Notes under the pieces: model-generated | Told to the model about the DNA's origin: nothing | What the model saw: only the letters and a program-made list of their open reading frames with translations | Databases searched by the model: none | In this document: piece after piece, positions 5,929 to 24,000 of the stretch | How the letters are laid out: each line of letters starts with the position of its first letter | How positions within the stretch are numbered: the first letter of the stretch is position 1 | NCBI GenBank assembly: GCA_013874835.1 | Contig: CP059430.1 | Coordinates: 552,864-576,863 of the forward strand | Source: Carnobacteriaceae bacterium zg-84 | Lineage (GTDB): Bacteria; Bacillota; Bacilli; Lactobacillales; Aerococcaceae | DNA: 24,000 nucleotides | Direction: 5' to 3' | Position numbers and translations under genes: made by a program

Positions 5929-5954
5929 TGCTCTTTGTTCATCATTTCCTAATC

Positions 5955-6000
5955 AGTCCAAATATGTACACTACTGTGTGCTTTATTTGGACTTTTTTAT
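5955..6000 (+). terminator. Rho-independent terminator between the regulator gene and ulaG.
   Basis: Perfect 10-bp stem AGTCCAAATA (5955-5964) / TATTTGGACT (5984-5993) with a 19-nt loop, followed by TTTTTAT. Confidence 0.7.
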
Positions 6001-6053
6001 TATGTAAAAGGGAATATACTAAACTTATAGTAAAACATTTTGGAGGTATAAAA

Positions 6054-7145: not shown

Positions 7146-7174
7146 AAATAAATAAAAAGAAAGAGGGAAATACA

Positions 7175-8614: not shown

Positions 8615-8628
8615 TGGAGGAATTATAT

Positions 8629-8913
8629 ATGTTAAAAGTATTAGCAGCCTGTGGTAACGGAATGGGCAGTTCAATGGTTGTCAAAATGAAAGTAGAAATG
8701 GCACTTCGTAAAATGGGTGTGTCTGATTTTAAAACAGACTCTTGTTCTATTGCTGAAGCAAAAGGAATGGCAAGTCAATATGATGTTGTCATTGCATCAA
8801 AACATTTGATTTCTGAATTACAAGGACGTACACAAGGTCATCTTGTTGGTTTGGATAATTTAATGGACGATAAAGAAATTTCTGAAAAATTATCAGAAGT
8901 ATTACATGTATAA
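8629..8913 (+). CDS. ulaB: PTS ascorbate-specific EIIB component.
   Basis: 'MLKVLAACGNGMGSSMVVKMK' carries the EIIB Cys P-loop. I preferred the ATG at 8629 (GGAGG at 8616-8620) to the GTG at 8614 used in the track. Confidence 0.9.
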   Translation: MLKVLAACGNGMGSSMVVKMKVEMALRKMGVSDFKTDSCSIAEAKGMASQYDVVIASKHLISELQGRTQGHLVGLDNLMDDKEISEKLSEVLHV

Positions 8914-8918
8914 AATAT

Positions 8919-8976
8919 AAAGGATTGAACAATCAACATAAAAGGGATTTGAACCTGTTCAATCCTTTTATGTTGA
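8919..8976 (+). promoter_or_regulatory. Intercistronic RNA element with two mutually exclusive 13-bp helices between ulaB and ulaC.
   Basis: Helix A is AAAGGATTGAACA (8919-8931) / TGTTCAATCCTTT (8956-8968). Helix B is TCAACATAAAAGG (8933-8945) / CCTTTTATGTTGA (8964-8976). The two share 8964-8968. Neither is followed by a clear U-tract, and the ulaC Shine-Dalgarno sequence (8982-8988) is left free. Confidence 0.45.
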
Positions 8977-8994
8977 ATGATAAGGAGGACAACA

Positions 8995-9480
8995 ATGAAT
9001 TTAAAACAAGCATTACTTGATAATCAGTCAGTTTGTTTAGGTTTAAGTGCAACAACATGGGAGGAAGCAGTCAAATTAGCTGTTTTACCGCTCATTGCTA
9101 GTCAAGCTGTTGAAGAACAATATTATGATGCCATTATTGAATCAACAAATGAATATGGACCATATTATATTTTAATGCCCGGTATGGCAATGCCTCATGC
9201 AAGACCAGAAGCAGGTGTGAATAAGGATGCTTTTTCATTGATAACTTTAAAAGAACCCGTGACTTTCTCTGACGGAAAAGAAGTGAGTGTTTTAATTGCT
9301 TTAGCAGCAACCAGTTCAAAAATACATACAAGTGTTGCCATTCCACAGATTATTGCATTATTAGAGCTAGAAAATTCGATTGCACGTTTATTGGCGTGTC
9401 AATCTGCTCAAGATGTCTATGATTTGATTGATGAGTCAAAAGATAGTCCGTATTTAGAGGGGTTAAACTTAGAAGAATAG
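8995..9480 (+). CDS. ulaC: PTS ascorbate-specific EIIA component.
   Basis: '...YILMPGMAMPHARPEAGV...' contains the conserved phospho-His region of EIIA(Mtl/Asc)-type domains. The ATG at 8995 is preceded by AAGGAGG (8982-8988); the track start at 8977 is an upstream extension. Confidence 0.88.
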   Translation: MNLKQALLDNQSVCLGLSATTWEEAVKLAVLPLIASQAVEEQYYDAIIESTNEYGPYYILMPGMAMPHARPEAGVNKDAFSLITLKEPVTFSDGKEVSVLIALAATSSKIHTSVAIPQIIALLELENSIARLLACQSAQDVYDLIDESKDSPYLEGLNLEE

Positions 9481-9491
9481 GAGCGTACACG

Positions 9492-10160
9492 ATGACAAAA
9501 CATATACCAAATTTACAAGTTGCCTTAGATCATTCTGATTTAACAGGAGCAATTACTGCTGCCGTATCAGTTGGACAAGAGGTAGATATTATTGAAGCAG
9601 GAACAGTGTGCTTATTACAAGTCGGTAGTGAATTGGTTCAAGTTTTACGAAACTTATTTCCAGATAAAATTATTGTAGCCGATACAAAATGTGCAGATGC
9701 AGGAGGAACTGTTGCAAAAAATAATGCAGTTCGTGGAGCAGATTGGATGACATGTATTTGTTCAGCAACCATTCCAACGATGCAAGCAGCAGACAAAGCA
9801 ATCAAAAAAGAACGTGGTGATAGAGGAGAAATTCAAGTTGAGCTATATGGTGATTGGACTTATGAGCAAGCACAAATGTGGTTAGACGCAGGAATTAGTC
9901 AAGCTATTTATCATCAAAGTAGAGATGCTCTTTTAGCCGGAGAAACATGGGGAGAAAAAGATTTATCTAAAGTGAAAAAATTGATTGATATGGGATTTAG
10001 AGTATCTGTTACAGGTGGACTAAACATTGATACATTAGCTTTATTCAAAGGTGTTGATGTGTATACATTTATTGCAGGTCGAGGGATTACAGAAGCTGAA
10101 AATCCTGCTCAAGCAGCACGAGCATTTAAAGATGAAATTAGACGTATTTGGGGTGAGTAG
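9492..10160 (+). CDS. ulaD: 3-keto-L-gulonate-6-phosphate decarboxylase (OMP-decarboxylase suprafamily).
   Basis: 'LQVALDHSDL...IIEAGT...VADTKCADAG' is typical of UlaD/SgbH/HPS-like enzymes. Length is 222 aa, in the ula context. Confidence 0.9.
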   Translation: MTKHIPNLQVALDHSDLTGAITAAVSVGQEVDIIEAGTVCLLQVGSELVQVLRNLFPDKIIVADTKCADAGGTVAKNNAVRGADWMTCICSATIPTMQAADKAIKKERGDRGEIQVELYGDWTYEQAQMWLDAGISQAIYHQSRDALLAGETWGEKDLSKVKKLIDMGFRVSVTGGLNIDTLALFKGVDVYTFIAGRGITEAENPAQAARAFKDEIRRIWGE

Positions 10161-10161
10161 T

Positions 10162-11025
10162 ATGAAACGTCCAATCGGTCTTTATGAAAAAGCAACACCT
10201 AAGCAGATGACCTGGCCAGAAAGATTATTATTTGCCAAAGAATTAGGTTTTGATTTTGTCGAAATGTCTATTGATGAAACAGATGCACGTTTATCACGTT
10301 TAGATTGGACAAAAGAGGAACGGTTAGATATTGTTAAAGCCATTTATGAAACAGGAGTACGCATTCCAAGTATTTGTTTTAGTGGACATCGTCGTTATCC
10401 ATTGGGTTCTAGTGATGCTTCAATAGAAGAAAAATCATTAGTGTTAATGCAAAAATGTATTGAGTTGGCACAAGATTTAGGTGTTCGTGTCATTCAATTA
10501 GCCGGATATGATGTGTATTATGAAGAAAAATCTCCTGAAACACGACGTCGGTTTATGAAAAATTTAAGAAAAGCGTGTGATTGGGCAGAGCAATGTCAAG
10601 TGATTTTAGCTATCGAAATTATGGATGATATGTTCATCAATAGTATTGAAAAATATTTAGCGATTGAAAAAGAAATCAACTCTCCTTATCTATTTGTGTA
10701 TCCTGATACAGGCAATGTTTCTGCATGGCATAATGATTTGTATAGTGAATTTTATTTAGGGCATAAATCAATTGCCGCAATGCATTTAAAAGATACATAC
10801 GCCGTTACAGAAACACAAAAAGGACAATTTCGAGATGTACCATTTGGCAAAGGATGTGTTGATTGGGAAGAATGCTTCCGTGTGTTGAAAGAAACTAATT
10901 ATCAAGGTGCGTTTTTAATTGAAATGTGGTCTGAAAATTGTAAGACAGTCGAAGAAACAAAAGCTGCCATTCAAGAAGCTCAAGCCTTTTTATATCCATT
11001 ATTAGAGAAAGCGGGGTTACGATAA
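10162..11025 (+). CDS. ulaE: L-ribulose-5-phosphate 3-epimerase (L-xylulose-5-P 3-epimerase).
   Basis: 'MKRPIGLYEKA...WPERLLFAKELGFDFVEMSIDE' is typical of UlaE/SgbU. The ATG at 10162 directly follows the ulaD stop. The track start at 10051 would overlap ulaD by 110 nt. Confidence 0.9.
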   Translation: MKRPIGLYEKATPKQMTWPERLLFAKELGFDFVEMSIDETDARLSRLDWTKEERLDIVKAIYETGVRIPSICFSGHRRYPLGSSDASIEEKSLVLMQKCIELAQDLGVRVIQLAGYDVYYEEKSPETRRRFMKNLRKACDWAEQCQVILAIEIMDDMFINSIEKYLAIEKEINSPYLFVYPDTGNVSAWHNDLYSEFYLGHKSIAAMHLKDTYAVTETQKGQFRDVPFGKGCVDWEECFRVLKETNYQGAFLIEMWSENCKTVEETKAAIQEAQAFLYPLLEKAGLR

Positions 11026-11720
11026 TGCTAGAAAATCTAAGAGAACGTGTCTATCAAGCTAATTGTGATTTGCCTAAGCATAAATTAGTGAAATTTACAT
11101 GGGGAAATGTGAGTGCCATTGATAGAGAAACGGGTTTAGTCGTTATTAAACCAAGTGGTGTTGACTATGAAAAACTATCTCCTGAAAATATGGTGATTAC
11201 CGATTTAAATGGTAATATTGTTGAGGGTACATTACGTCCATCATCCGATTTAAAAACACATCTTGAGATATATAAAGCATTTCATGAAGTGGGCGGTATC
11301 GTACATACACATTCTAGCCAAGCAGTTGCGTGGGCTCAAGCAGGACGAGATATTCCTTTCTACGGAACAACACATGCTGATTACTTTTACGGTTCAATTC
11401 CTTGTGCAAGATCACTCACAGCAGAAGAAATCAATGGGGATTATGAAAAGTCAACAGGAGATGTCATTATTGAAACATTTCATCATAGACACATAAATCC
11501 AATGGCGGTTCCCGGAGTAATTGTTAGAAATCATGGTCCTTTTACATGGGGTAAAACACCAGAAGAGGCTGTTTATCACAGCGTTGTTTTAGAAGAAGTG
11601 GCCGACATGGCAAAAAACACAGAATTACTTTGCCCTAATGTTGAACAAGCACCACAAGTGCTAATGGATAAACACTATTTGCGTAAACACGGTAAAAATG
11701 CTTATTATGGACAAAAGTAA
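11025..11720 (+). CDS. ulaF: L-ribulose-5-phosphate 4-epimerase (class II aldolase fold).
   Basis: 'GNVSAIDRETGLVVIKPSGVDYE...VHTHS...THADYF' is typical of AraD/UlaF. The start overlaps the ulaE stop (TAATG). Confidence 0.9.
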   Translation: MLENLRERVYQANCDLPKHKLVKFTWGNVSAIDRETGLVVIKPSGVDYEKLSPENMVITDLNGNIVEGTLRPSSDLKTHLEIYKAFHEVGGIVHTHSSQAVAWAQAGRDIPFYGTTHADYFYGSIPCARSLTAEEINGDYEKSTGDVIIETFHHRHINPMAVPGVIVRNHGPFTWGKTPEEAVYHSVVLEEVADMAKNTELLCPNVEQAPQVLMDKHYLRKHGKNAYYGQK

Positions 11721-11907: not shown

Positions 11908-12117
11908 AGAGCCATCAACACCAAATAGTATAGAGTGATAATTTGTCGAATAGTCATTTAAAAAGATATTGGCATTTAGGACAGTTCTATTTTTGTAGTT
12001 CGTTATAGATAGATTGCCTTATCTATTATTTGTTTAGTGGGATGTAACGAAGAATTGCTTTTATTATAGATAAAACATTCTGAAAGCATTATAATATTTA
12101 ATATAAGAGGTGATAAT

Positions 12118-13002
12118 ATGCAAGAACATATAACAGAAACAAGATTACAAGAAAGTATGGCATTGGATACAATGTCTATTTCCGAAATTACCACACTTAT
12201 CAATCAAGAAGATGATAAAGTTGCTCGATGTGTGAAAGAGGCGTTACCAAGTATCAATCAGTTGATTGAAATGGTCGTTACTATATTAAGCAATCAAGGA
12301 AGACTTATTTATATTGGTGCAGGAACAAGTGGTAGATTAAGTATATTAGATGCAAGTGAATGTGTTCCGACCTTTAATGCACCTTGTGAAATGATTCAAG
12401 GAATTATTGCTGGAGGATCAAGTGCAATAACACAAGCAGTAGAAGGTGCAGAAGATGATACCGAACAAGCCGTTCTTGATTTAAAAGCTATTTCTTTTTG
12501 TGAAAAAGATATATTGATTGGCGTAGCAGCTAGTGGTAATACACCCTATGTTGTGAGTGCATTAGAATATGCGCATTCAATAGGTGCTAAAACAGGTGCG
12601 ATTGTATGTAATAAACATTCAAAAATGTCTGCTCTAGCAGATTATCCAGTTGAAGTTTTTGTTGGCTCAGAAGTGTTGACTGGTTCAACAAGAATGAAAG
12701 CAGGAACTGCACAGAAAATGATTTTAAATATGATTTCAACAACAGCGATGATAAAATTAGGAAAAGTGTATCAAAATCTGATGATAGACGTTGTGGCAAG
12801 TAATGAAAAATTGTACAAAAGAGCTATTTCAATTATTCAAGAAGCAACAGGTTGTACAAAAATAATGGCGGAAAAAACATTTTTATTGGCTAATAAGCGA
12901 ACAAAAGTAGCAGTTGTCATGATTTTATTTAGTGTATCAAGTCAAAAAGCAGAAGAATTACTCTCTCAATATAAAGGATTTATTCGTGAAATTGTTGATT
13001 GA
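12118..13002 (+). CDS. murQ: N-acetylmuramic acid 6-phosphate etherase (SIS domain).
   Basis: 'GRLIYIGAGTSGRLSILDASECVPTF', 'IAGG..A......EGAEDD', 'GVAASGNTPYV', 'LTGSTRMKAGTAQKMILNMISTT' and 'GKVYQNLMIDV' match conserved MurQ blocks. AAGAGGTGA lies upstream of the ATG. Confidence 0.92.
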   Translation: MQEHITETRLQESMALDTMSISEITTLINQEDDKVARCVKEALPSINQLIEMVVTILSNQGRLIYIGAGTSGRLSILDASECVPTFNAPCEMIQGIIAGGSSAITQAVEGAEDDTEQAVLDLKAISFCEKDILIGVAASGNTPYVVSALEYAHSIGAKTGAIVCNKHSKMSALADYPVEVFVGSEVLTGSTRMKAGTAQKMILNMISTTAMIKLGKVYQNLMIDVVASNEKLYKRAISIIQEATGCTKIMAEKTFLLANKRTKVAVVMILFSVSSQKAEELLSQYKGFIREIVD

Positions 13003-13031: not shown

Positions 13032-13060
13032 TTTACATTTTAGAGAGTATATATTATAAT
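13032..13060 (+). promoter_or_regulatory. Near-consensus sigma-A promoter for the downstream ten-gene operon.
   Basis: TTTACA (13032-13037), an exact 17-nt spacer, then TATAAT (13055-13060). The predicted transcription start near 13067 gives a leader of about 200 nt before the ATG at 13268. Confidence 0.7.
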
Positions 13061-13107
13061 GTTGGTAATTGAAGATAGGTAACGTTTTCATCTTTGTATC
13101 TTTATGA

Positions 13108-13141
13108 TTTTTCAATGTACAAAAAAATGTATATTGAAAAA
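13108..13141. promoter_or_regulatory. 14-bp inverted repeat in the operon leader: candidate operator, or an RNA hairpin.
   Basis: TTTTTCAATGTACA (13108-13121), spacer AAAAAA, then TGTATATTGAAAAA (13128-13141). That gives 13 Watson-Crick pairs and one G:T position. It contains GT..AC cores like those in GntR-family operators, and the operon encodes a GntR-type HTH protein (YhfZ-like). No U-tract follows, so it is not a classical terminator. Confidence 0.4.
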
Positions 13142-13267
13142 ATAAAATAAACGAAAGAGAGGCTCGTATTTGGAAAGGGTATAGAGAATATCAAATACCT
13201 ATATCAATTAGCTGGTAACAATGGAACAAATCACAATGATTAGGACAATAATGAAAGGGAGATACTT

Positions 13268-14638
13268 ATGAGAAAAACACTCACATTATTTTGTAGCGTT
13301 GCATTATTGAGTTTTGGATTGAGTGCTTGTACCCAAACACCAACAAAGGACACAATGACTAAGCCAGATACATCAACAACAGTTACAATGGCTAAACCAA
13401 ATGAGAATTTAGCATTGGAAAAATCTATAGATGGAATTGCTTATACTTATGTTCGTAGTCAGTTAGCAAAAGATAATCCAAAAGCTGTTCCAGGTGCTCA
13501 AATTGCCATTATGAAGGACGGACAATTAGTGTTTAATAAATCCTACGGTGTGATACAAGCATTTGATTTTGCGAATAATCCACCTACTAAGGTAGAAAAG
13601 CCAATAGCTGTGACGAATGATACATTATTTGACTTAGCATCCGTGACAAAAATAAGTGCAACAACCCAAGCTATGATGCATCTTGTTTATGAAGGGAAAA
13701 TAAAATTAGATGATAAAGTAGCGACTTATTTACCAGACTTTGCTAAAAACGGTAAAGAAAATGTGACAATAGGACAATTATTAAGTCATACATCTGGGCT
13801 ACCACAATGGAAAGCCATTTATTTATATGCCAATACACGTGAAAAAGCGTTAGAATATATTGAAAATCAACCATTGATGTTTGAAACAGGCACATATAAA
13901 TATAGTGACTTAGGTTTTATGACATTGGCATTTGTTATTGAAAAAATAACAAATCAACCTTTTGATACTTATGTTGAAAAAACAATTTATGAGCCACTTG
14001 GTTTAAAACATACAATGTTTAATCCGTTGTCAAAAAATATTGATAAAAATCAAATTGCTGTAACATCATACGGAAATCCTTATGAATTAAGAATGATAGA
14101 TGAAGTGAACTATCCTAATTTTGGATATGATATGAGTGAAGATAAAGATGCATTTGATAAGTTTATGAATTGGCGTCAAGTGGAATTACAAGGTGAAGTA
14201 AATGACGGAAATGCTGGTATGGCAAATGAAGGAATCGCAGGACATGCAGGGCTATTTTCAACAGCTTCAGATTTAGCTAAATTATATCAAGTTTTATTAG
14301 ATAAAGGAAAAAGTGGACAAACAGTTTTATATGATGAAACAGTGTTAAATGCCTTTTTAGAAGATGTTCATACAGAAAAAAGTGGTACAGTTCAAGCATA
14401 TGGTTTTATCAAACATAATGCATGGTTAAAAGAATTATCTGATGACGCTTTAGGACATAATGGATTTACAGGTACATACGTGACAATTTCTCCAAAAGAA
14501 AATATTGTTATTATTTTATTGACAAATAAAATGAATAATGGACAAAAAGAAAACGGAGCCTATAATGTCATCAATGATTTTGCTGCATCTGTAAACTATA
14601 CTGTAAAAAATATTTATCTAGAAAAAATGGAGAAATAA
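13268..14638 (+). CDS. Exported lipoprotein of the beta-lactamase/PBP-fold serine hydrolase family (AmiE/YbbE-like, D-aminopeptidase/esterase-like).
   Basis: The signal peptide has the lipobox 'FGLSAC' (Cys21). Motifs present are SxxK 'SVTK', the Y-x-N-equivalent 'YSD', and 'GHNGFTG' in place of KTG. The 456-aa length is comparable to the beta-lactamase-fold MurNAc-L-Ala amidase AmiE of B. subtilis. The AmiE assignment itself is inference from fold family and the murQ neighbour. Confidence 0.75.
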   Translation: MRKTLTLFCSVALLSFGLSACTQTPTKDTMTKPDTSTTVTMAKPNENLALEKSIDGIAYTYVRSQLAKDNPKAVPGAQIAIMKDGQLVFNKSYGVIQAFDFANNPPTKVEKPIAVTNDTLFDLASVTKISATTQAMMHLVYEGKIKLDDKVATYLPDFAKNGKENVTIGQLLSHTSGLPQWKAIYLYANTREKALEYIENQPLMFETGTYKYSDLGFMTLAFVIEKITNQPFDTYVEKTIYEPLGLKHTMFNPLSKNIDKNQIAVTSYGNPYELRMIDEVNYPNFGYDMSEDKDAFDKFMNWRQVELQGEVNDGNAGMANEGIAGHAGLFSTASDLAKLYQVLLDKGKSGQTVLYDETVLNAFLEDVHTEKSGTVQAYGFIKHNAWLKELSDDALGHNGFTGTYVTISPKENIVIILLTNKMNNGQKENGAYNVINDFAASVNYTVKNIYLEKMEK

Positions 14639-14639
14639 A

Positions 14640-15002
14640 ATGAAAAAAATTGTTATTGGTGGGCAAATTGATAAAGAAGAAGTGAAGCAACTAGTTGAAG
14701 CGTATGGAGAAAATCGATACGATATTTCAATTAAAAATGATTTAGATGCTGCAATGGCAGTAAAAACAGGAGCAGCAGATTACTACATTGGAGCATGTAA
14801 TACAGGTGGTGGCGGTGCCTTAGCAATGGCTTTAGCTTTATTAGGTAGACAAGAATGTGTCACTATCTCTATGCCCGGTCACGTTATGAGTGATGAAGAG
14901 ATTATAGAAAATGTTAAAAGTGGTAAAAAAGCATTTGGCTTTACAGCACAACATAAAGAAATCGTTATTCCAATCATTATGAAAGCATTAAATGAACAAT
15001 AA
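14640..15002 (+). CDS. yhfU: YhfU-like small soluble protein (DUF2620 family).
   Basis: The 120-aa length and the motif 'GAADYYIGACNTGGGGALAMALALLG' match my recollection of E. coli YhfU. The ATG lies 1 nt after the upstream stop, with GGAGA 6 nt upstream. Confidence 0.75.
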   Translation: MKKIVIGGQIDKEEVKQLVEAYGENRYDISIKNDLDAAMAVKTGAADYYIGACNTGGGGALAMALALLGRQECVTISMPGHVMSDEEIIENVKSGKKAFGFTAQHKEIVIPIIMKALNEQ

Positions 15003-15017
15003 TAAGGGAGAATAAAT

Positions 15018-16334
15018 ATGGAAACATCAAAAATTTTAGAATTAGTCGTAATTGCCTTATTAGGTGGATTATGTGCCATTTTATCAAATAAAGGTATTGC
15101 CGTTTTTAATGACGGATTAAGACCTATTTTACCAGAATTTTTAGAAGGTAAAATTGGGAAGAAAGAACTTGCGGCAACAAGTTTTGCATTAAGTTTTGGT
15201 TTAGTTATTGGATTTGGTATTCCAGTATCTATCGGGGCATCTATTATTTTAGTACATAGTATTTTATTGATGACAGACATTATCGGTTCATGGGCACCAG
15301 AAGGAAAACTTGGTTTAGCCTTATCTGGTGGTGTTGGAGCAATCTATGGTATTGGTCTTGTTTTAGGATTGCAAAAAGTCGTTGATTTATTCGCTATGTT
15401 ACCTGTGAATTTCATGCCGTCATTATCAGTTGTTGGAGCACCAATTATTGTTGCATTCAGTATTTTCCCAGCGATTGCTATTGCAAGCCAACATGGTATG
15501 AAAAAAGGTGCAGTGGCATTAGGTGCAACATTATTAACACTTGTTTTTGTAAAACGTTTTGGAACAATCACATTAGACAATGGAACAGCTATTAAATTAA
15601 GTGCAGAAGGTATGTCATTATTAGTTGGTATGATTTTTATGATTATTTTTGCCATGATGGTAAAAAGCGATGGTACAGAATCAAACCAAGCATTAGTTAG
15701 TGTCTTTTTAGAACGTGTGAATCGCATTAAGAAAAATTGGTTATGGTTAGCATTAACAGGCGGATTAGTTGCTGCAGCAACAAGTTTATTGATTATTGCA
15801 GGAGATCCAATTTCATTAAACTTATTAAAAGATGCGAAATTTAATGAAGCAGCATTAGCAGCATTTGCGCGTGGTATTGGTTTTATTCCACTTGTTTTCT
15901 CAACAGCAATTGTGACAGGTGTGTACAGTCCAGCGGGAACAACATTTGCGTTTGTTGCAGGTATTGCTTTACATGGTAATCCAGCTGTTGCCTTTGTTTT
16001 AGGTGCTTTGTTAATGTTTGTTGAAGTTCAATTATTATCTTTAGTAGCAAAAGCATTAGATAAATTCCCAGGTATTCGTGACATGGGTGAACATATTCGT
16101 ACAGCGATGAATAAAGTGTTAGAAATAGCTTTATTAGTCGGAGGTGCTATGGCGTGTGAACAAATTGCTCCTGGAATTGGTTATTTCTGGGTAATCGGGT
16201 TACTATTGTTAAACAGAAAAGCGAAAAAACCAGTTGTTGAATTGGCAGTAGGACCAATGGCAACGATTAGTTTAGGTATTATCGTAAATATTTTATATTT
16301 GATTGGTTTATTTATCCCAGTCGTTGCTAAGTAA
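15018..16334 (+). CDS. yhfT: YhfT-like polytopic membrane protein (putative transporter).
   Basis: A 438-aa (E. coli YhfT is about 434 aa), very hydrophobic Gly/Ala/Ile/Leu-rich multi-pass protein. It is adjacent to the yhfU-like and php genes, as in E. coli. Confidence 0.7.
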   Translation: METSKILELVVIALLGGLCAILSNKGIAVFNDGLRPILPEFLEGKIGKKELAATSFALSFGLVIGFGIPVSIGASIILVHSILLMTDIIGSWAPEGKLGLALSGGVGAIYGIGLVLGLQKVVDLFAMLPVNFMPSLSVVGAPIIVAFSIFPAIAIASQHGMKKGAVALGATLLTLVFVKRFGTITLDNGTAIKLSAEGMSLLVGMIFMIIFAMMVKSDGTESNQALVSVFLERVNRIKKNWLWLALTGGLVAAATSLLIIAGDPISLNLLKDAKFNEAALAAFARGIGFIPLVFSTAIVTGVYSPAGTTFAFVAGIALHGNPAVAFVLGALLMFVEVQLLSLVAKALDKFPGIRDMGEHIRTAMNKVLEIALLVGGAMACEQIAPGIGYFWVIGLLLLNRKAKKPVVELAVGPMATISLGIIVNILYLIGLFIPVVAK

Positions 16335-16346
16335 TGAGGTGTTTCT

Positions 16347-17234
16347 ATGACTTGGATAGACGGCATTACGTATATGCACGAACATACAACCATTGACTTA
16401 TCTCGTTTAAAAGGCATTGATGACACAAATTTAAACTGTTTTGATGAAACAGTTCAAGAGTTTAAGGGATTATACGAAAGAGGCGTTCGTAATATTGTCG
16501 ATGTGACGAATTTAGATATGAAACGTAATCCTGTATATGTCCAAAAAGTTGCTGAATTAACACAAATAAATGTGATACAAGCAACAGGTTTTTACCAAGA
16601 CAAATTTTTACCCGACTTTGTAACAGATGCAAGTGTGAAACAATTAGCTGATTTTATGATAAAAGAAATCACACAAGGCATTGCGGATACAACAATCAAA
16701 GCACAAATTATTGGTGAAATTGGTACGAGTAAAAATCTAATGACAGACAGAGAAAGAAAAGTGTTCGAAGCCTCTGTTATTGCACATAAAGAAACAGGAG
16801 TTCCTATTACTACACATACAACATTAGGGACATACGGACATGAACAAATTGCCTTTTTCAAAAAACAAAAAACAGATTTAGAAAAAATTGTTATTGGACA
16901 TGTTGACTTAACAGGTAATGCGGAGTATGTTTTATATATGTTAGATCAAGGTGTTTACGTCGAGTTTGATACAGTTGGAAAAGAAAATTATCAACCTGAT
17001 TTGACGAGAATAAACATGTTAAAAGAAATTGAAAAAAGAGGATATATAGATAAAGTATTCTTATCAATGGATATTACAAGAAAATCACATTTAACGTATC
17101 AAGGTGGCATGGGGTATGCGTATTTATTGGATACTTTTGTTCCAATGGCACTAGAAAATGGTGTGAGTGAAACATTTATTCGTAAAATGCTAGTGGATAA
17201 TCCTAAAACCTTTATGAAAGGAAGTAAATCATGA
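16347..17234 (+). CDS. php: Phosphotriesterase homology protein (amidohydrolase superfamily, PTE/PLL family; probable lactonase-type hydrolase).
   Basis: 'YMHEHTTIDL' (the HxH metal ligands), 'RGVRNIVDVTN', 'ATGFYQD', 'IIGEIGTS' (Glu in place of carbamylated Lys, as in E. coli Php), 'THT', 'IGHVDL' and 'LSMDITR' are collinear with E. coli Php as I recall it. Length is 295 aa against 292 aa. Confidence 0.92.
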   Translation: MTWIDGITYMHEHTTIDLSRLKGIDDTNLNCFDETVQEFKGLYERGVRNIVDVTNLDMKRNPVYVQKVAELTQINVIQATGFYQDKFLPDFVTDASVKQLADFMIKEITQGIADTTIKAQIIGEIGTSKNLMTDRERKVFEASVIAHKETGVPITTHTTLGTYGHEQIAFFKKQKTDLEKIVIGHVDLTGNAEYVLYMLDQGVYVEFDTVGKENYQPDLTRINMLKEIEKRGYIDKVFLSMDITRKSHLTYQGGMGYAYLLDTFVPMALENGVSETFIRKMLVDNPKTFMKGSKS

Positions 17235-18316
17235 CATATCCTTTAACGAGTTTAACGCTTGAAGAAGCACAACAATTACAATTTAAATTGGTCGATGCGA
17301 TTACCAAATATTTTTCTGGAACAGACATTTTAAGTTATGGTGATTTAGGTGTTGTGAAAGGATTGAATCAACCGAGTGTCACGAAAAAAGTGGAAACTGT
17401 ATTAGCAGATTTTTTCAATGTTGAAGCTACTTTACTTGTACGAGGAGCAGGAACGAATGCTATTCGATTAGGATTACATGCTTTATTAAATAGTGGCCAA
17501 ACGGTACTCGTGCATGATGCACCCATTTATCCAACAACAAAAGTGTCTATCGATATGCTAGGATTACAGACAATAAAAGCGGATTTTAATGACAAAAAAA
17601 TTGTTCAAGAATGCTTGAAAAAACATCAGATTGATGCTGTTTTAATTCAAGTAACTCGTCAGAAGTTAAATGATTCATACGATTTAGAAACACTTATTAC
17701 ATGGATAAAAGAATTAGCACCAACAATAAACATCATTACAGATGATAATTATGCTGCTTTAAAAACAAAAGGTATTGGTGCAGAATTAGGAGCAACACTT
17801 TCTTGTTTTTCAACCTTTAAATTATTAGGACCTGAAGGCATTGGCTGCATTGCAGGAAAGCGTGAGTATATTGAAAAACTAAAAGCAGAAAATTATTCTG
17901 GTGGAGGGCAAGTACAAGGGTATGAATCGTTAGAAGTATTAAGAGGTATGGTGTATGCACCTGTTTCTTTGGCGATTTCTGCGAATGTGGGAACAGAGCT
18001 GTGTCGTCGATTAAATGAGGGTGAAGTAAAAGGTGTTAAAGGAGCTTATATTGCTAATGCACAATCAAGAGTTGTTATTGTGACATTGGAAGAACCGATT
18101 GCCAAAGACGTGATTGAAACAGCTTGTCAGTTAGGTGCTCTAGGACATCCGGTAGGAGCAGAATCAAAATATGAATTTTGTCCATTGATTTATCGTGTAT
18201 CTAGCACATTTAGACAAGAAAATCCACAAGCTGAAAGTACAATGTTACGTATCAATCCAAATCGAGCGGGAGTAGATACAATTATTCGCATATTATCTCA
18301 AGCAATGAATCAATAA
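17231..18316 (+). CDS. yhfS: YhfS-like fold-type-I PLP-dependent enzyme (aminotransferase/lyase-like).
   Basis: Its 361 aa equals the length of E. coli YhfS. 'GDLGV..GLNQP.VT..VE.VLADFF', 'VHDAPIYPTT', 'DDNYA', 'FSTFKLLGPEG' (candidate PLP Lys), 'YSGGGQVQG' and 'PVGAESKYE' resemble YhfS. The start overlaps the php stop (ATGA). Confidence 0.8.
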   Translation: MTYPLTSLTLEEAQQLQFKLVDAITKYFSGTDILSYGDLGVVKGLNQPSVTKKVETVLADFFNVEATLLVRGAGTNAIRLGLHALLNSGQTVLVHDAPIYPTTKVSIDMLGLQTIKADFNDKKIVQECLKKHQIDAVLIQVTRQKLNDSYDLETLITWIKELAPTINIITDDNYAALKTKGIGAELGATLSCFSTFKLLGPEGIGCIAGKREYIEKLKAENYSGGGQVQGYESLEVLRGMVYAPVSLAISANVGTELCRRLNEGEVKGVKGAYIANAQSRVVIVTLEEPIAKDVIETACQLGALGHPVGAESKYEFCPLIYRVSSTFRQENPQAESTMLRINPNRAGVDTIIRILSQAMNQ

Positions 18317-18330
18317 AAAGGTGGACCTGT

Positions 18331-19254
18331 ATGGTAGAGTTATTTTTGAAGAAAAAAGGCGACGTTATTTATCGTTTGGCGTCAAACTTACTACAATTAA
18401 AAAAAGGAGATCGTTTACCTAGTGTATCTGAATATCAAGAATTATTCCAGGTATCAAGAGGGACTGTCCAAAATGCTATGGCGTATTTGAAAGAAGCAGG
18501 AGCATTTCAAAGTAAATCTAAAGGACATTTAGGTTCTTATATTGAAAGCGTTGATTATAGTATTTTACAAACTTTTGCTTTGTCGGATACGATTATGGGT
18601 ACGATGACTCTACCATACTCTAAATTATATGAGGGGTTAGCAACGGGGATTTATGATGAATTTAGAGAAAATCGTGTGAAATTAAATTTAGCTTATATTC
18701 GAGGATCAAAAGAAAGATTAAAGGCTGTTGCTAGAGAAAATTATCATTTTGCTGTTTTATCAAAATTCGCAGCGTTAAAAGCTATAGAGGAAAATACACC
18801 TATTGACATTGTTGTTGATTTTGGTAAACATACGTATTTAAGTGAACATATCTTGATTTTTGCAGATAAAAAGGCATCTAAAATTATCAATGGTATGAAA
18901 GTGGCAATCGATTATAATTCAATTGACCAACAATTATTAACAGAAAAACTCATTTACGAAAAAAATGTTGAGTTGGTAGAAGTCCCGGGGCATCAAATAG
19001 TATCTGCTGTACGTCAAGGAATTGTTGATGTGGGTGTATGGAATTATGATGAAATTGTTGATAAAAACTACCAAGACATCCATTATATCAAACTTTCTAG
19101 CGATATATTAGATGAACAAATGAGTACATCGGTCATTGTGGTGCACACACAAAATAAATCCTTGCAAGCATTCTTTAAACAAAGTTTTCAAACAGAGAAT
19201 GTCTTGACAATTCAACGTGCTGTTTATACAGGGACGATTATCCCTCAATATTAG
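18331..19254 (+). CDS. yhfZ: YhfZ-like putative regulator: N-terminal GntR-type winged HTH plus a C-terminal periplasmic-binding-protein-like domain.
   Basis: 'LPSVSEYQELFQVSRGTVQNAMAYLKEAGA' is a GntR-like HTH. Length is 307 aa (E. coli YhfZ is about 301 aa). It is next to the yhfY-like gene, as in E. coli. Confidence 0.75.
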   Translation: MVELFLKKKGDVIYRLASNLLQLKKGDRLPSVSEYQELFQVSRGTVQNAMAYLKEAGAFQSKSKGHLGSYIESVDYSILQTFALSDTIMGTMTLPYSKLYEGLATGIYDEFRENRVKLNLAYIRGSKERLKAVARENYHFAVLSKFAALKAIEENTPIDIVVDFGKHTYLSEHILIFADKKASKIINGMKVAIDYNSIDQQLLTEKLIYEKNVELVEVPGHQIVSAVRQGIVDVGVWNYDEIVDKNYQDIHYIKLSSDILDEQMSTSVIVVHTQNKSLQAFFKQSFQTENVLTIQRAVYTGTIIPQY

Positions 19255-19264
19255 GAGACAGATT

Positions 19265-19612
19265 ATGATAATAGAAAAATTAAACATATTAGAACAAGGT
19301 ACAATTATTGATAGTGAAACAAAAGAATGGGTAATCAGAATCCGTGAAGCATTAAAAATGTATGACGAGTGTTTGGGTGACACAGAAATGGAAGTATTTT
19401 TAATTCATTTAGCAATGGCAGATGCTCGTCGGAAACAAAATGATACATCTGTTCAAGCTATGGATGACGCATTTTTTAAAGAAGTTCAAGAACATGAAAA
19501 ATATGCTCTAAGTCAACAAATTTATACAGAGTTATTATCAGACAAACATTTTTCTGAGCCAGAAATGACCTATATTTATTTGCATCTTGTCAATATGTTA
19601 GGAGGGAATTGA
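19265..19612 (+). CDS. yhfY: YhfY-like stand-alone PRD-domain protein.
   Basis: Length is 115 aa (E. coli YhfY is about 120 aa). 'EMEVFLIHLAMADAR' and 'MTYIYLHLVNM' look like PRD helices with conserved His. I chose the ATG at 19265 (AGGAGA at 19253-19258, 6-nt spacing) over the track start at 19217, which overlaps yhfZ. Confidence 0.7.
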   Translation: MIIEKLNILEQGTIIDSETKEWVIRIREALKMYDECLGDTEMEVFLIHLAMADARRKQNDTSVQAMDDAFFKEVQEHEKYALSQQIYTELLSDKHFSEPEMTYIYLHLVNMLGGN

Positions 19613-19613
19613 T

Positions 19614-20768
19614 GTGTTTTTAGATATCACATTAACAAGAAATCCTAAACTACTCGAAGTTGCTAAAAACTTACACCAATCCGGTGATATTTTGCCAGAC
19701 ACGTATGTATTAGATTTGGATACAATTTTACAAAATGCAAAAGCAATGGCAGATGTGGCAAAACAGGAACAAGTGGAATTGTTTTATATGCCAAAACAAT
19801 TTGGACGTAATCCACTTATTGCCAAAAAAATTAGTGAAACAGCTATTTCAAAAGCCGTTGTTGTCGATTATAAAGAAGCTTTGTTGTTGATGAAACATCA
19901 ATTACCTTTAGGGAATGTAGGACATTTGGTTCAAATTCCTAATACTCTACTTGAGAAAATCATTGCTTATGGGACAGACTATATCACTGTTTTTTCAATG
20001 GAAAAATTACAACAAATTGTAGATGTGGCAAAACGTTTACAAAAAAAGCAGCGTGTATTATTAAAAATCATTGAGCCAACAGATACAATTTATGAAGGAC
20101 AGTATGGTGGTTTTCATCTATCACAACTAGAAGAAGTCGTGACGTATTTAAGTCAACAGTCTTATGTAGAATTAGGAGGATTGACATCATTTCCTTGCTT
20201 TTTATTTAATCAAGTTGATGATATTGTACCAACTAAAAATATACAAACATTGCAAAAAGCTAAAGGGTTTTTAGAAGAAAAAGGTATCACAAATCTTGCA
20301 ATCAATATGCCATCTGCTACATCGACATATACAATTCCTAAAATTAAAGCACTGAATGGGACACAAGGTGAACCAGGGCATGCCTTAACAGGAACAACAC
20401 CATTACATCAAGTGACATCTTTGATTGAAAGACCGGCTATGGTCTATGTGAGTGAGATTTCACATTGTTTAGACAATCATGCCTATTTCTATGGTGGAGG
20501 GTACTATCGTCGAGGACATTTTGAACATGTTATTGTCTATGAACCTTTCAGAGTTGTAAGAGATACATTGATGCCATTTGATTGTGAAAGTATTGATTAT
20601 TATTTAAAAACAGAAAAAGAACATGCAGTAGGCAGCACGGTTTTAGCGGCCTTTAGAACACAAATTTTTGTCACAAGAAGTGACGTTGCTGTTGTATCAG
20701 GAATACAAACAGATAATCCTAAACTAGAAGGGATATTTGATAGTTTGGGTAATCAAATAAGAAGGTGA
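19614..20768 (+). CDS. yhfX: YhfX-like fold-type-III PLP enzyme (alanine-racemase N-terminal domain family; putative amino-acid racemase/epimerase).
   Basis: Length is 384 aa (E. coli YhfX is about 387 aa). 'LFYMPKQFGRNP' holds the candidate PLP-Lys. GTG start with GGAGGG at 19601-19606; the ATG at 19612 is followed immediately by a stop. Confidence 0.75.
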   Translation: MFLDITLTRNPKLLEVAKNLHQSGDILPDTYVLDLDTILQNAKAMADVAKQEQVELFYMPKQFGRNPLIAKKISETAISKAVVVDYKEALLLMKHQLPLGNVGHLVQIPNTLLEKIIAYGTDYITVFSMEKLQQIVDVAKRLQKKQRVLLKIIEPTDTIYEGQYGGFHLSQLEEVVTYLSQQSYVELGGLTSFPCFLFNQVDDIVPTKNIQTLQKAKGFLEEKGITNLAINMPSATSTYTIPKIKALNGTQGEPGHALTGTTPLHQVTSLIERPAMVYVSEISHCLDNHAYFYGGGYYRRGHFEHVIVYEPFRVVRDTLMPFDCESIDYYLKTEKEHAVGSTVLAAFRTQIFVTRSDVAVVSGIQTDNPKLEGIFDSLGNQIRR

Positions 20769-20773
20769 AAAAA

Positions 20774-21994
20774 GTGGGACGATTTATTGTGATCGTACTG
20801 GATAGCTTTGGCGTTGGTGCCATGGACGATGTTTCTCAAGTCAGACCGATTGATGTCGGAAGTAATACAGCAAAACATATTATACAAGCATCTCCAACTA
20901 TTCAGTTACCAACATTAGAAAAATTAGGATTGATGAACGCCATTGGTGAAGAACTACCATCTCATTCTTTTTCTAAAACAGCAAATTATGGGACGAGTGA
21001 TTTAGCTCATTATGGAGCAGATTCATTTTTAGGGCATCAAGAGATTATGGGGACAACACCTAAAGTTCCTTTAATCGAGCCTTTTAATGAAAAAATAGAT
21101 GATGTCGAATGTCATTTATTACAACACGGATATAATGTCAGACGTCTTGGAGAAAAAGGTGCACAAATTTTAATTGTCAATAATGTCGCAACTGTTGGCG
21201 ATAATTTAGAAACAGACGCGGGTCAAGTCTATAATGTATCCGCTTGTTTAGATAGCATCTCTTTTGAGGACTTGAAACAATTAGGACAAAGAGTAAGAGA
21301 AGTGGTACACGTATCACGTGTGATTGCTTTTGGTGGTCAAAAAATAACGATTGATGATTTATTACATGCTTTTGAAGTAAGAGGCACACATATTGCAGGT
21401 GTAGATGCTCCAAAATCCCATGTTTATGAGTGTGGTTATCAAGTGGTGCATCTAGGATACGGCATTGATAAAAACACACAAATCGCAACAATTCTCGATA
21501 AAAAAAATATAACTGTTTCTTTTTTAGGAAAAGTAGCAGATATTGTTCAAACAGAAAGCACACGTTTATTTCCTGGAGTGGATTCAAATACATTATTTGA
21601 TTCACTCATAAAAGAAGTAAAAGAAATCTCGCATGGTTTTATTGCCTTGAACATTCAAGAAACAGATTTAGCAGGGCATGCACAAGATGTACAACGCTAT
21701 GCCGATCGACTTGAGTTAAGTGATAAACGTATCGAAGAATTGTTACCATTGCTTGTCAAAGGCGATGTACTTATTGTCATGGCAGACCATGGAAATGACC
21801 CAACGATTGGACATAGCAATCATACACGAGAAAAAGTGCCTTTGCTTGTATATTCACCAACTATTGAAGGGAAATATATTGGACATAGACAAACATTAGC
21901 TGACGTGGCAGCGACAGTGGCCGATTACTTTGATGTAAACATGCCACAACATGGACAATCTTTCTTAGCAAATATTTTTGAGGAAAAAGCATGA
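20774..21994 (+). CDS. yhfW: YhfW-like phosphopentomutase-family metalloenzyme (alkaline-phosphatase superfamily phosphomutase).
   Basis: 'FIVIVLDSFGVGAMDD', 'ETDLAGH' and 'MADHGNDPT..HSNHTREKVPLLVY' parallel DeoB motifs. I prefer the GTG at 20774 (GAAGGTGA at 20761-20768, 5-nt spacing) to the track GTG at 20765, which has no room for a Shine-Dalgarno sequence. Confidence 0.8.
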   Translation: MGRFIVIVLDSFGVGAMDDVSQVRPIDVGSNTAKHIIQASPTIQLPTLEKLGLMNAIGEELPSHSFSKTANYGTSDLAHYGADSFLGHQEIMGTTPKVPLIEPFNEKIDDVECHLLQHGYNVRRLGEKGAQILIVNNVATVGDNLETDAGQVYNVSACLDSISFEDLKQLGQRVREVVHVSRVIAFGGQKITIDDLLHAFEVRGTHIAGVDAPKSHVYECGYQVVHLGYGIDKNTQIATILDKKNITVSFLGKVADIVQTESTRLFPGVDSNTLFDSLIKEVKEISHGFIALNIQETDLAGHAQDVQRYADRLELSDKRIEELLPLLVKGDVLIVMADHGNDPTIGHSNHTREKVPLLVYSPTIEGKYIGHRQTLADVAATVADYFDVNMPQHGQSFLANIFEEKA

Positions 21995-22992
21995 ACAGAA
22001 TAAAGCACTATGCTTTTAAAACATTTCTAGCTTTGTCTAATGTACATAAATCTGTTTGCCGTGTTTTTCCTAATGCTCTTATAAACATAACAGAGCATTC
22101 TGGATATTATATGGGTATCAAAAATGTTCCAGATATTAAAAATTCTTTTATTCAATCGTTAGAATCGTTAGGATACATTTTACATACTGTGGATAAAGCA
22201 AGTCTTGGTGGTAGGGGTATCGACATTGATTTGAAAAATCCATTAACAGGACAAGCAATGACCGGTTCATCAAGTGGAACGGCAATGAATGTTTTTCTTA
22301 ATATCAATGATATAGGTATTGGAACAGACGGAGGAGGCTCCGTTTTAGCGCCAGCACTGGCTTTGAATGTATGTAGTTGTATACATGGATTATTGGGAAA
22401 AGATGATGTGAATGAGGGAACGGTCAAACGCTCAACAGACGGTATACCGTTCACCGCCTCTTTAGGCATTTTGTCCAAAGAGTTATCACATATTCAACGC
22501 ATTATCTATCATCAAATTCCACTCACGGCTGAATCACATTCACACGTGAACATCGCAATAGATAGTGCTATAGATTTACCTTATCCCAAAATAGATATAG
22601 CTGACAAGTATACACTATCTCGCCAAGCGCTGATTGAACGCTTAGAATGTTTATTACAGTCATATGACATCATTATTTCTAAAGAAGGACCTGTTGATTA
22701 TCACGGTTTTGGCGAAAGTATTTTTGGACATTTTGACCAAGGAACGCAAACGATTCAACAAAAAGCAAATAAAGGCTTTATACGTGTCGCCAATATGTGT
22801 CATGCTATGGCAGTAACTGTACCATCTACAGAATTATCGACAGGATATGTTTTGATATGTCGAACAACTAATAAAACAGTGGTTGATACATTATTTAAAC
22901 TAGCCGACCAATTAAAAGCTTCTAAAGATACATTAGTCGAACAATATTTTGGACGTTTAGATCAATATTTTACTGGTGGAAAATCAGTTTAA
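21991..22992 (+). CDS. Short, divergent amidase-signature (AS) family-like protein.
   Basis: 'TGSSSGTAMNVFLNINDIGIGTDGGGSVLAPA' reproduces the AS core GGSSGG-x14-G[ST]D-x-GGS-[IV]-R-x-PA with the same 14-residue spacing. It is only 333 aa, against about 450-500 for typical amidases. The start overlaps the yhfW stop (ATGA), with GAGGA 6 nt upstream. Confidence 0.6.
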   Translation: MNRIKHYAFKTFLALSNVHKSVCRVFPNALINITEHSGYYMGIKNVPDIKNSFIQSLESLGYILHTVDKASLGGRGIDIDLKNPLTGQAMTGSSSGTAMNVFLNINDIGIGTDGGGSVLAPALALNVCSCIHGLLGKDDVNEGTVKRSTDGIPFTASLGILSKELSHIQRIIYHQIPLTAESHSHVNIAIDSAIDLPYPKIDIADKYTLSRQALIERLECLLQSYDIIISKEGPVDYHGFGESIFGHFDQGTQTIQQKANKGFIRVANMCHAMAVTVPSTELSTGYVLICRTTNKTVVDTLFKLADQLKASKDTLVEQYFGRLDQYFTGGKSV

Positions 22993-23003
22993 GTATTTTT
23001 TAC

Positions 23004-24000
<997 letters not shown>

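Follow-up and report, generated by a model that had tools for sequence, protein, structure and literature searches.

The genes yhfZ-yhfY-yhfX-yhfW-php-yhfU-yhfT-yhfS of Escherichia coli K-12 (b3376-b3383) are a long-standing orphan set. Structures of YhfS, YhfX and Php have yielded no function, all eight genes are putative or uncharacterised in RefSeq, and yhfW was listed among uncharacterised genes in a paper of January 2026 (PMC12924614). Here we describe a ten-gene operon in a window of 24,000 nucleotides (nt) from Carnobacteriaceae bacterium zg-84 (assembly GCA_013874835.1, contig CP059430.1, positions 552,864 to 576,863, forward strand), which encodes all eight of these families together with an exported PBP4B-like hydrolase (gene 1) and a mini amidase-signature enzyme (gene 10). 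On balance, the operon is probably a single, self-regulated catabolic unit, and it represents an enlarged form of the orphan yhfZYXW-php-yhfUTS cluster of E. coli. An earlier reading of this DNA (hereafter, the original prediction) had held that the E. coli cluster has no assigned physiological substrate, and we likewise found no function or pathway for the gene set in the searchable literature or annotation. The yhfS, yhfT and yhfW of the Bacillus subtilis literature are unrelated same-named genes, and the citation of the E. coli Php structure 1BF6 in PMC12753220 is a phylogenetic reference only, with no functional study.

Among described systems the E. coli cluster is the closest, with all eight families shared at near-equal lengths, whereas the window operon has a different gene order, two extra hydrolase genes and an operator motif. 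The L-ascorbate (ula) pathway shares with our reading the concept that a compound is taken up and a metal-dependent lactonase then cleaves a phosphorylated sugar lactone, and the PTE family includes the phospho-sugar lactonases Lmo2620 and MS53_0025. The Php subgroup itself is not known to act on any lactone. Compared with the ula pathway and the PTE lactonases, the yhf cluster adds amino-group chemistry by two pyridoxal 5'-phosphate (PLP) enzymes. A parallel logic is seen in the cluster of TnEFM-UMCG-1 in Enterococcus faecium, which encodes an SFCGS small protein, DUF4310/4311/4312, an amidohydrolase, a BglG-type antiterminator with a PRD domain, a DgaE-family PLP ammonia-lyase and a KDGP-aldolase-family protein (PMC11934601). 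Both clusters combine a Cys/Gly-rich soluble protein, one or more membrane proteins, an amidohydrolase-superfamily enzyme, a fold-type I PLP enzyme and PRD control. The families nevertheless differ throughout, homology is unproven, and the yhf cluster has no aldolase but has a fold-type III PLP enzyme and a mutase in addition.

The gene set itself is known, and its ten-gene version is already annotated in generic terms in public genomes. Within the searchable record, what appear to be new are the membership of the mini-amidase and the PBP4B-like hydrolase, the operator, the RpiB-like character of YhfU, and the reading of YhfY and YhfZ as a split regulator with an intact PRD. The Granulicatella-type operon offers two clues to the substrate, namely the exported PBP4B-like hydrolase and the dedicated mini-amidase. 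Solving the function would assist the annotation of thousands of genes, possibly uncover a new uptake or regulatory principle, and bear on the nutrient niche of oral and gut commensals (Granulicatella, Enterococcus, Vagococcus, Clostridium).

Gene content and layout of the operon

The operon occupies 13268-22992 (positions are those of the window), and the window proteins are 99-100% identical to those of Granulicatella sp. zg-ZJ and Carnobacteriaceae bacterium zg-ZUI78. The predicted elements, in order, are:

13032-13060, + strand: predicted sigma-70-type promoter, TTTACA-17-TATAAT, 11/12 positions, 52 nt 5' of the operator
13112-13137, no strand: palindromic operator TCAATGTACA-AAAAAA-TGTATATTGA, candidate YhfZ site, a perfect match and the sole one in the window
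13268-14638, + strand: gene 1, PBP4B/YfeW-like serine hydrolase of beta-lactamase fold (PF00144), predicted exported lipoprotein
14640-15002, + strand: yhfU (DUF2620), soluble RpiB-fold protein with a Cys53-N-T-G-G-G-G loop (PF10941, 1e-45)
15018-16334, + strand: yhfT, polytopic membrane protein, presumed permease (PF10797, 1e-166)
16347-17234, + strand: php, binuclear-metal amidohydrolase of the PTE family (PF02126, 1e-82, 278 bits)
17231-18316, + strand: yhfS, fold-type I PLP enzyme (YhfS-like_C, 1.5e-42)
18331-19254, + strand: yhfZ, GntR-type helix-turn-helix plus YhfZ_C sensor domain (HTH_41 and YhfZ_C matches), candidate repressor
19265-19612, + strand: yhfY, stand-alone PRD protein of 115 amino acids (aa) (PF00874 match)
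19614-20768, + strand: yhfX, fold-type III PLP enzyme with an alanine-racemase-like barrel (YhfX-like_C, 4e-34; Ala_racemase_N, 9e-18)
20765-21994, + strand: yhfW, phosphopentomutase-like metalloenzyme of the alkaline-phosphatase superfamily (Metalloenzyme, 2.6e-37)
21991-22992, + strand: gene 10, cytoplasmic mini amidase-signature enzyme of 333 aa with a GSSSG...GTDGGGSV motif
23070-23093, + strand: first strong hairpin with a T-rich tail, in the pyrG leader (10 pairs, 7 G-C)

Consecutive genes are spaced by 1, 15, 12, -4, 14, about 10, 1, -4 and -4 nt. The open reading frames (ORFs) coincide with the genes listed except for ORF 7, which spans 19217-19612; within it, the ATG at 19265 stands behind an AGGAG (19254-19258) and is most likely the start of yhfY, the upstream GTG being less favoured. 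The original prediction had proposed this ten-gene + strand layout with junctions at 14638/14640, 17231, 19610-19616 and 21991. All ten ORFs were recovered, every one of these junctions is exact, and the ten packed genes are thus confirmed, at the level of sequence, as a real operon. It had also treated the genes as one unit, which agrees with the position of the operator 5' of gene 1 rather than of yhfU and with the situation in Granulicatella adiacens. There, the identical ten-gene block lies between IU-nucleoside hydrolase and ferritin genes, without murQ, and given these different neighbours the ten genes relocate as a unit.

The promoter at 13032-13060, already picked out as near-consensus by the original prediction, is the top-scoring + strand promoter match in the region. 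It stays a prediction, because promoter-like matches as a class are not enriched here (51 found versus 63 expected). Terminator-like matches inside the operon are weak (3 G-C pairs), all lie within coding sequence and show no excess (10 versus 5.9 +/- 2.6 by chance), in keeping with the earlier statement that no internal terminator precedes the pyrG promoter. The stretch from 22992 to the promoter-like site of pyrG (23004-23032) has no dedicated terminator. The hairpin at 23070-23093 follows that site and is the probable 3' limit of read-through. This arrangement is presumably akin to the CTP-responsive attenuator of pyrG in Bacillus and Lactococcus; it has no Rfam match.

Profile hidden Markov model searches (Pfam and NCBIfam) found all eight yhfSTU-php-yhfWXYZ families encoded together, confirming each family assignment of the original prediction. 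Seven of the products are 28-53% identical to their E. coli K-12 counterparts in pairwise BLASTP, and YhfY was assigned by its PRD match and a family alignment that includes E. coli YhfY. In the order U-T-php-S-Z-Y-X-W, the lengths in the window and in E. coli are 120/117, 438/434, 295/292, 361/361, 307/301, 115/120, 384/387 and 409/408 aa. This gene order, shared with other Lactobacillales, differs from the Z-Y-X-W-php-U-T-S of E. coli, as had been predicted, and Clostridia have Z-(Y)-U-T-php-S-X-W.

The four core enzymes are close to proteins of known structure or to defined groups. The best Protein Data Bank (PDB) matches of Php are E. coli Php 1BF6 and 4LEF (4e-79), and its residues H11, H13, E124, H157, H185 and D242 are conserved in 83 sequences; we take these to be the binuclear-metal ligands, as in the E. 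coli Php structure. Php scored 334 bits against NF007373, below the equivalog cut-off of 486, and matched the NCBIfam phospho-furanose lactonase model at 9e-22 (77 versus a cut-off of 630). YhfS matched PDB 4J8L ('uncharacterized protein YhfS') at 1e-117 and is 53% identical to E. coli YhfS, and YhfX matched 4KBX ('uncharacterized protein YhfX') at 1e-95. YhfW, 48% identical to E. coli YhfW, scored 572 bits against PRK12383 (cut-off 254) and keeps a set of Asp/His residues of the metal-binding kind of its superfamily. An assignment as the phosphopentomutase DeoB (TIGR01696) was rejected (167.8 bits versus a cut-off of 341), and YhfW belongs instead to the separate PRK12383/YhfW group.

A candidate operator that accompanies yhfZ

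To survey related loci, a YhfT-based scan was performed, which detected relatives in at least 380 species. The best 80 loci were taken and three loci reached via the mini-amidase were added, giving 83 loci onto which the window proteins were mapped; neighbour counts are from the 67 loci with complete flanks.

The palindrome at 13112-13137 is a candidate operator for YhfZ. It lies between the promoter and gene 1, as the core (TCAATGTACA-N6-TGTATATTGA) of a 31-nt inverted repeat in the leader, and follows the consensus TCAATnTACA-N6-TGTAnATTGA, for which the window holds one perfect match versus 0.09 expected by chance per 24 kilobases. Sites with at most three mismatches were detected in 73/83 loci, nearly always immediately ahead of the gene that opens a cluster unit. 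In most Lactobacillales this opening gene is yhfU, and in both Granulicatella lineages it is the beta-lactamase-fold gene; in Clostridium, one site precedes yhfZ and another precedes yhfY/yhfU, and some genomes have tandem sites. Where enough flanking sequence was available, the operator was present in 56/59 loci with yhfZ and in 0/4 without it (Fisher p = 6e-5, for lineages that are not independent). Since the operator stands upstream of gene 1, this gene is likely under yhf control as well. The palindrome could be used directly as a reporter or as a probe in electrophoretic mobility shift assays when screening for the inducer.

A different placement was seen in a group of Lactobacillaceae loci (L042-L046, L051, L057, L060, L063 and L082). 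There, an operator-like site lies 18-25 nt 5' of yhfT, at or just past the end of yhfU, and not before the first gene.

A riboswitch or a ribonucleic antiterminator (RAT) element in the 200-nt leader was rejected. No Rfam family, including any RAT-like one, matched across the window, and the folding of the leader (z = -3.65) is attributable to the palindrome, whose sequence is conserved.

YhfZ is well placed in its family (379 bits against NF041241 YhfZ_full, cut-off 260; YhfZ_C, 2.5e-63), and it also matched HTH_41. YhfY matched PRD PF00874 at 2.6e-5, with 24.9 bits versus a Pfam cut-off of 23. It has a single PRD and not the BglG/LicT antiterminator architecture of a CAT domain plus two PRDs. 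Its residues H48 and H107, 59 residues apart, are conserved in 100% and 99%, respectively, of 80 homologues. We take them to be the PRD histidine pair phosphorylated by the phosphotransferase system (PTS), the spacing presumably being that of LicT-type PRDs. YhfY is near-universal in the loci, as an ORF family of 44 loci, undetected by tblastn, proved to be YhfY. The two-part regulator of the original prediction thus gains support and a sharper form, with an operator that tracks with yhfZ and a YhfY that keeps both PRD histidines, which are residues open to mutational testing, as is Cys53 of YhfU.

YhfU and YhfT

The Cys53 of YhfU is invariant in a 30-sequence alignment and conserved in at least 90% of 84 sequences, and it sits in the invariant DUF2620 loop Y-x-G-A-C-x-T-G-G-G-G-A-L-A-M. 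The AlphaFold2 model of YhfU has a mean predicted local distance difference test (pLDDT) score of 96, and its top Foldseek matches in the PDB are type-B ribose-5-phosphate isomerases (RpiB), with template modelling (TM) scores of 0.65-0.73 and probability 1.0. In hhalign, Cys53-N-T-G fell on Cys66-G-T-G of RpiB, which holds the catalytic Cys (E = 0.015), and phmmer gave weak matches to LacAB/RpiB-like proteins. YhfU also matched PF14272 'Gly-rich SFCGS' weakly over its full length (E = 0.012), which directs attention to the parallel E. faecium cluster; no SFCGS protein is present in the fetched loci. The DUF2620 profile had only non-significant matches to PDB sequences, and against 1.84 billion representatives it retrieved only 181 members of the family and reached no RpiB or SFCGS protein, so that homology of YhfU to either remains unproven.

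YhfT has about ten hydrophobic segments, and yhfU lies directly 5' of yhfT in nearly all loci. The original prediction had called the pair a transporter. This stands for YhfT in so far as it is a polytopic membrane protein; a link to the permease families compared did not emerge, and YhfU is predicted to be a soluble RpiB-fold protein and is not recognisable as part of a transporter.

One possibility, which we rate as unlikely, is that the pair forms a new PTS-type uptake system, with YhfU as an EIIB-like protein phosphorylated on Cys53 and YhfT as an EIIC-like one. The substrate would then enter in phosphorylated form, and YhfY would sense the phosphorylation of YhfU. Consistent with this, the cluster has no kinase although relatives of YhfW and Php use phospho-sugars, the cysteine lies in an invariant glycine-rich loop, and yhfU keeps its place before yhfT. 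A PRD protein with two histidines is almost always present, and a DUF2620-linker-PRD fusion exists (P0439), as the one credible fusion among 181 representatives. The SFCGS/DgaE clusters likewise pair a small Cys-Gly protein with membrane proteins and a PRD regulator, and HPr or EIIB genes occur near a few of the yhf clusters. The structure argues otherwise: the closest folds of YhfU are RpiB, the top 50 fold matches include no EIIB, and no Pfam PTS_IIB match was obtained at E <= 10. Moreover, Cys53 follows strand 3, as in RpiB, whereas the Cys of known cysteine-type EIIBs is in the first loop. YhfT is unlike the EIIC families, and the cluster has no EIIA. Two further apparent fusions were discarded, as the php-yhfU one looks like read-through and the yhfU-yhfT one looks frameshifted.

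It is also conceivable, if doubtful, that YhfU is a soluble aldose-ketose sugar-phosphate isomerase, that is, a minimal RpiB/LacAB with Cys53 as the base, and that YhfT is an ordinary secondary permease for a substrate that is already phosphorylated or modified later. RpiB provides the top fold matches, the C-x-T-G loops of the two proteins align, and an isomerase would fit between the lactonase and the PLP enzymes of a sugar-acid pathway. YhfU, however, is about 30 residues shorter at the C terminus, and we presume that it also lacks the C-terminal phosphate-binding arginines of RpiB. The loop 1 Asp9-His10 of RpiB falls in an alignment gap, and sequence similarity is not significant. In addition, a purely metabolic role would leave unexplained the fixed place of yhfU beside a membrane protein gene and the PRD fusion.

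Two loci from metagenome-assembled genomes of Bacillota/Negativicutes (L075, L077), which lack yhfZ and the operator, have a second, divergent yhfT paralogue (42-43% identity). It lies next to yhfU and is followed by the mini-amidase gene.

Two accessory hydrolases recur in yhf clusters

The mini-amidase gene is attached to or embedded in the cluster at 45/67 loci, after yhfW (32 loci), between core genes (7) or divergently upstream (6). The PBP4B-like gene is attached at 8/67, all of which also have the mini-amidase. It lies upstream of the cluster in Granulicatella and downstream in Alkalibacterium, and in the Clostridium paraputrificum group it separates yhfU from yhfT; in Sneathia (L080, outside the complete-flank set) it is found between php and yhfS. 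Both genes are therefore recurrent, genuine cluster members whose position shuffles between lineages, and a gene that changes position yet remains in the cluster is likely linked to it in function. The co-occurrence anticipated by the original prediction was strong for the amidase and rarer for the PBP4B-like gene, though in independent arrangements. No other broadly recurrent accessory gene was found in the survey loci.

Gene 10 is, judging from its motifs, a genuine but strongly trimmed amidase-signature enzyme. It scored 26.2 bits against Amidase PF01425, just under the Pfam cut-off of 27, and the match is confined to residues 89-123 and to profile positions 126-160 of 445, so that a full-length domain is not covered. 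The PF01425 assignment made earlier was thus borne out in its signature and triad and fell short in score and extent. The Ser-cisSer-Lys triad is intact, since at least 90% of 52 homologues keep S93, S117 and K44 (the last within a G-I-K motif), and the signature aligns with GatA, Pam and MAE2. The assignment follows from this triad, from the 24 residues between S93 and S117, which we take to be the Ser-Ser spacing of amidase-signature enzymes, and from the family profile, which reaches GatA at 2.9e-7 (residues 89-202 only). The GSSSG...GTDGGGS signature and the triad are common to gene 10 and to GatA, Pam, malonamidase E2 and FAAH. In contrast, the family of gene 10 (866 homologues detected, those listed being about 338 aa long) is considerably shorter than the solved relatives (412-636 residues), with residues 89-202 as the alignable part. 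Lys44 precedes the cis-Ser by 49 residues, compared with about 70-79 in other members, and we know of no smaller amidase-signature enzyme.

Gene 1 matched Beta-lactamase PF00144 at 2.4e-65 (221 bits). Its best NCBIfam match is PBP4B (NF002968), and as its 243.9 bits are below the cut-off of 385, it is better described as a PBP4B relative than as an equivalog. Of the named proteins, E. coli YfeW comes closest, sharing 35% identity across 366 residues (E = 4e-65), and the motifs S125-x-x-K128, Y212-S-D and H397-x-G399 (here H397-N-G) are kept in 14 homologues. A lipobox (L-S-A-C) at residues 18-21 points to export, and a signal peptide or lipobox is present in nearly all cluster-linked homologues of gene 1. 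PBP4B (YfeW) of E. coli shares the SxxK, YS(N/D) and HxG motifs, and its gene is the last of murQ-murP-yfeW; gene 1 likewise comes after murQ. It differs from YfeW in being a predicted Gram-positive lipoprotein, in standing under the yhf operator and in being embedded in yhf clusters in other phyla.

That neighbourhood allows gene 1 to be read as part of a murQ unit for the recycling of N-acetylmuramic acid (MurNAc) from the cell wall, merely abutting a nine-gene yhf operon. The similarity to YfeW fits, as do the immediate 5' position of murQ, with no predicted terminator in between, and the strong promoter-like site at 14539-14566 ahead of yhfU. Yet murQ and gene 1 lie 265 nt apart, and this interval includes the perfect yhf operator as well as the top-scoring promoter match. 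A single nucleotide separates gene 1 from yhfU, and the same junction and operator occur in G. adiacens without murQ. Homologues of gene 1 lie between core yhf genes in Clostridium (L047, L048) and Sneathia, and murQ is a cluster neighbour in 0/67 loci. We consider this reading improbable, and murQ was rejected as a functional partner of the cluster. The original prediction had used the proximity of murQ as an argument; this adjacency is not conserved, and the resemblance of gene 1 to the YfeW of murQ-murP-yfeW is what is left of it, as a weak echo.

In Vagococcus xieshaowenii, whose cluster (L001) has no PBP4B-like gene, a Peptidase_M20 gene (1046-2230 of the locus) lies about 370 nt 5' of yhfU. 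Its product may be an alternative feeder hydrolase.

Distribution of the cluster

The cluster has a patchy spread over Firmicutes, Thermotogae, spirochaetes and enterobacteria. In the spirochaete Entomospira entomophila it is carried on plasmid p118 (L036), without yhfZ and without the operator, and this plasmid location suggests horizontal mobility. Because of the patchy distribution, the plasmid-borne copy in Entomospira and the parallel SFCGS cluster of E. faecium, a catabolic role seems more plausible than a housekeeping one. Sporadic neighbours include nagB (5 loci), HPr (3 loci) and PTS-related genes. The nagB gene (glucosamine-6-phosphate deaminase, identified by eye) lies directly 3' of the cluster at 16054-16788 of L040 and in four other Clostridium loci, which is a faint hint of amino-sugar metabolism.

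A possible pathway and the points against it

Among the substrate classes, all of them conjectural, the best candidate is an N-substituted amino-sugar-acid or lactone that is amide-linked and probably phosphorylated. A phosphorylated compound of this kind is the most economical choice because the cluster combines the absence of a kinase with a PRD protein, a mutase and a lactonase that has phospho-sugar-lactone relatives.

In the scheme that we propose, YhfZ would repress at the palindrome 3' of the promoter and be released on binding the substrate or an intermediate, and YhfY would make this control depend on PTS phosphorylation. Outside the cell, the PBP4B-like lipoprotein may cleave an amide or ester bond and free a transportable unit from a larger conjugate, possibly one that is cell-wall-derived or has D-amino acids. 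YhfT would import this unit together with the RpiB-fold cysteine protein YhfU. Uptake may deliver a phosphorylated compound, or the compound may be imported already phosphorylated. Phosphorylation at or before uptake may hold because the cluster has no kinase, yet the relatives of YhfW and Php use phosphorylated substrates. In the cytoplasm, the mini-amidase could strip an acyl or amide group and Php could open a cyclic ester, for instance a lactone. The PLP enzymes YhfX and YhfS would invert and remove the amino group, and YhfW would shift or remove the phosphate, so that the carbon skeleton could enter central metabolism.

In its fullest form, this scheme would make the cluster an unrecognised PTS-coupled nutrient module. 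YhfU and YhfT, the latter as a new family of membrane proteins, would import and phosphorylate the substrate, YhfY and YhfZ would act as a split regulator on the operator, and a new pathway would degrade an amide-linked amino-sugar-acid or lactone, with release by the PBP4B-like protein and deacylation by the mini-amidase in Granulicatella. With all of its parts taken together, we hold this to be a distinctly long shot.

A biosynthetic or salvage route (for example, to a modified amino sugar or cofactor precursor) would be just as feasible for a mutase, a hydrolase and a pair of PLP enzymes, and it would suit the lack of an encoded terminal aldolase or dehydrogenase linking to central metabolism. 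It is nevertheless very improbable in view of the substrate-type repressor with its ligand-binding domain and the PRD, the exported hydrolase and membrane protein at the operon front, the patchy distribution with block relocation and plasmid carriage in one species, and the nagB genes 3' of five Clostridium loci.

Several observations weigh against the catabolic scheme or parts of it. The order of reactions is conjecture, with all steps inferred from sequence, and the cluster encodes neither EIIA nor HPr. The RpiB link of the shortened YhfU comes from fold, with a Foldseek E of 1.6e-3 compared with sequence E values of only 0.015-0.5. For YhfT, a relation to transporters was not found: PF10797 was the only Pfam match at E <= 10, no PDB entry matched, hhalign against UlaA, EIIC_2, SgaT, FruA and a BrnQ-like protein gave E >= 0.1, and the AlphaFold2 model (10-sequence alignment, pLDDT 41) was not used. 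The promoter at 13032-13060 is identified by its consensus match only, and a second promoter-like site (TGGACA-16-TATAAT, 14539-14566, 11/12 positions) lies within the closing part of gene 1, some 75 nt 5' of yhfU; it might serve as an internal promoter or be what remains of an ancestral yhfU promoter. The operator motif was not found in the E. coli locus, and E. coli YhfY (14061-14423 of L087) is the sole one of the 80 homologues without the second PRD histidine (the H107 equivalent). On account of both, the control of the E. coli cluster may have diverged or decayed. Neither accessory hydrolase is present in E. coli or in many Firmicutes, which makes these enzymes optional feeders and not core steps. 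Finally, the survey covers those 80 of 380 loci that resemble the window most, from lineages that are not independent.

Genomic setting

A complete L-ascorbate-type PTS operon lies 5' of the yhf operon at 4276-11720. It encodes a PRD/HTH regulator, the lactonase UlaG and UlaA-F, that is, EIIC (UlaA), EIIB, EIIA, UlaD, UlaE and UlaF, and is thus a characterised instance of PTS uptake followed by a lactonase, located beside the yhf cluster. The longest ulaE ORF (GTG at 10051) overlaps ulaD by 110 nt, and the true start is therefore probably later.

Between the two operons is an orphan murQ (MurNAc-6-phosphate etherase, 12118-13002), which exceeds its NCBIfam cut-off, is preceded by a promoter-like site of its own (12067-12095) and has no adjoining murP. 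The order of murQ and the PBP4B-like gene 1 is as in E. coli murQ-murP-yfeW, though gene 1 is under the yhf operator. On the other side of the yhf operon, the pyrG ORF starts at 23141.

At the 5' edge of the window, an incomplete ORF (2-2530, at least 842 aa) encodes a surface protein with Asp-rich repeats. It matched CglD/thrombospondin-type-3-like and Sdr/Clf-like repeats and a YPDG domain.

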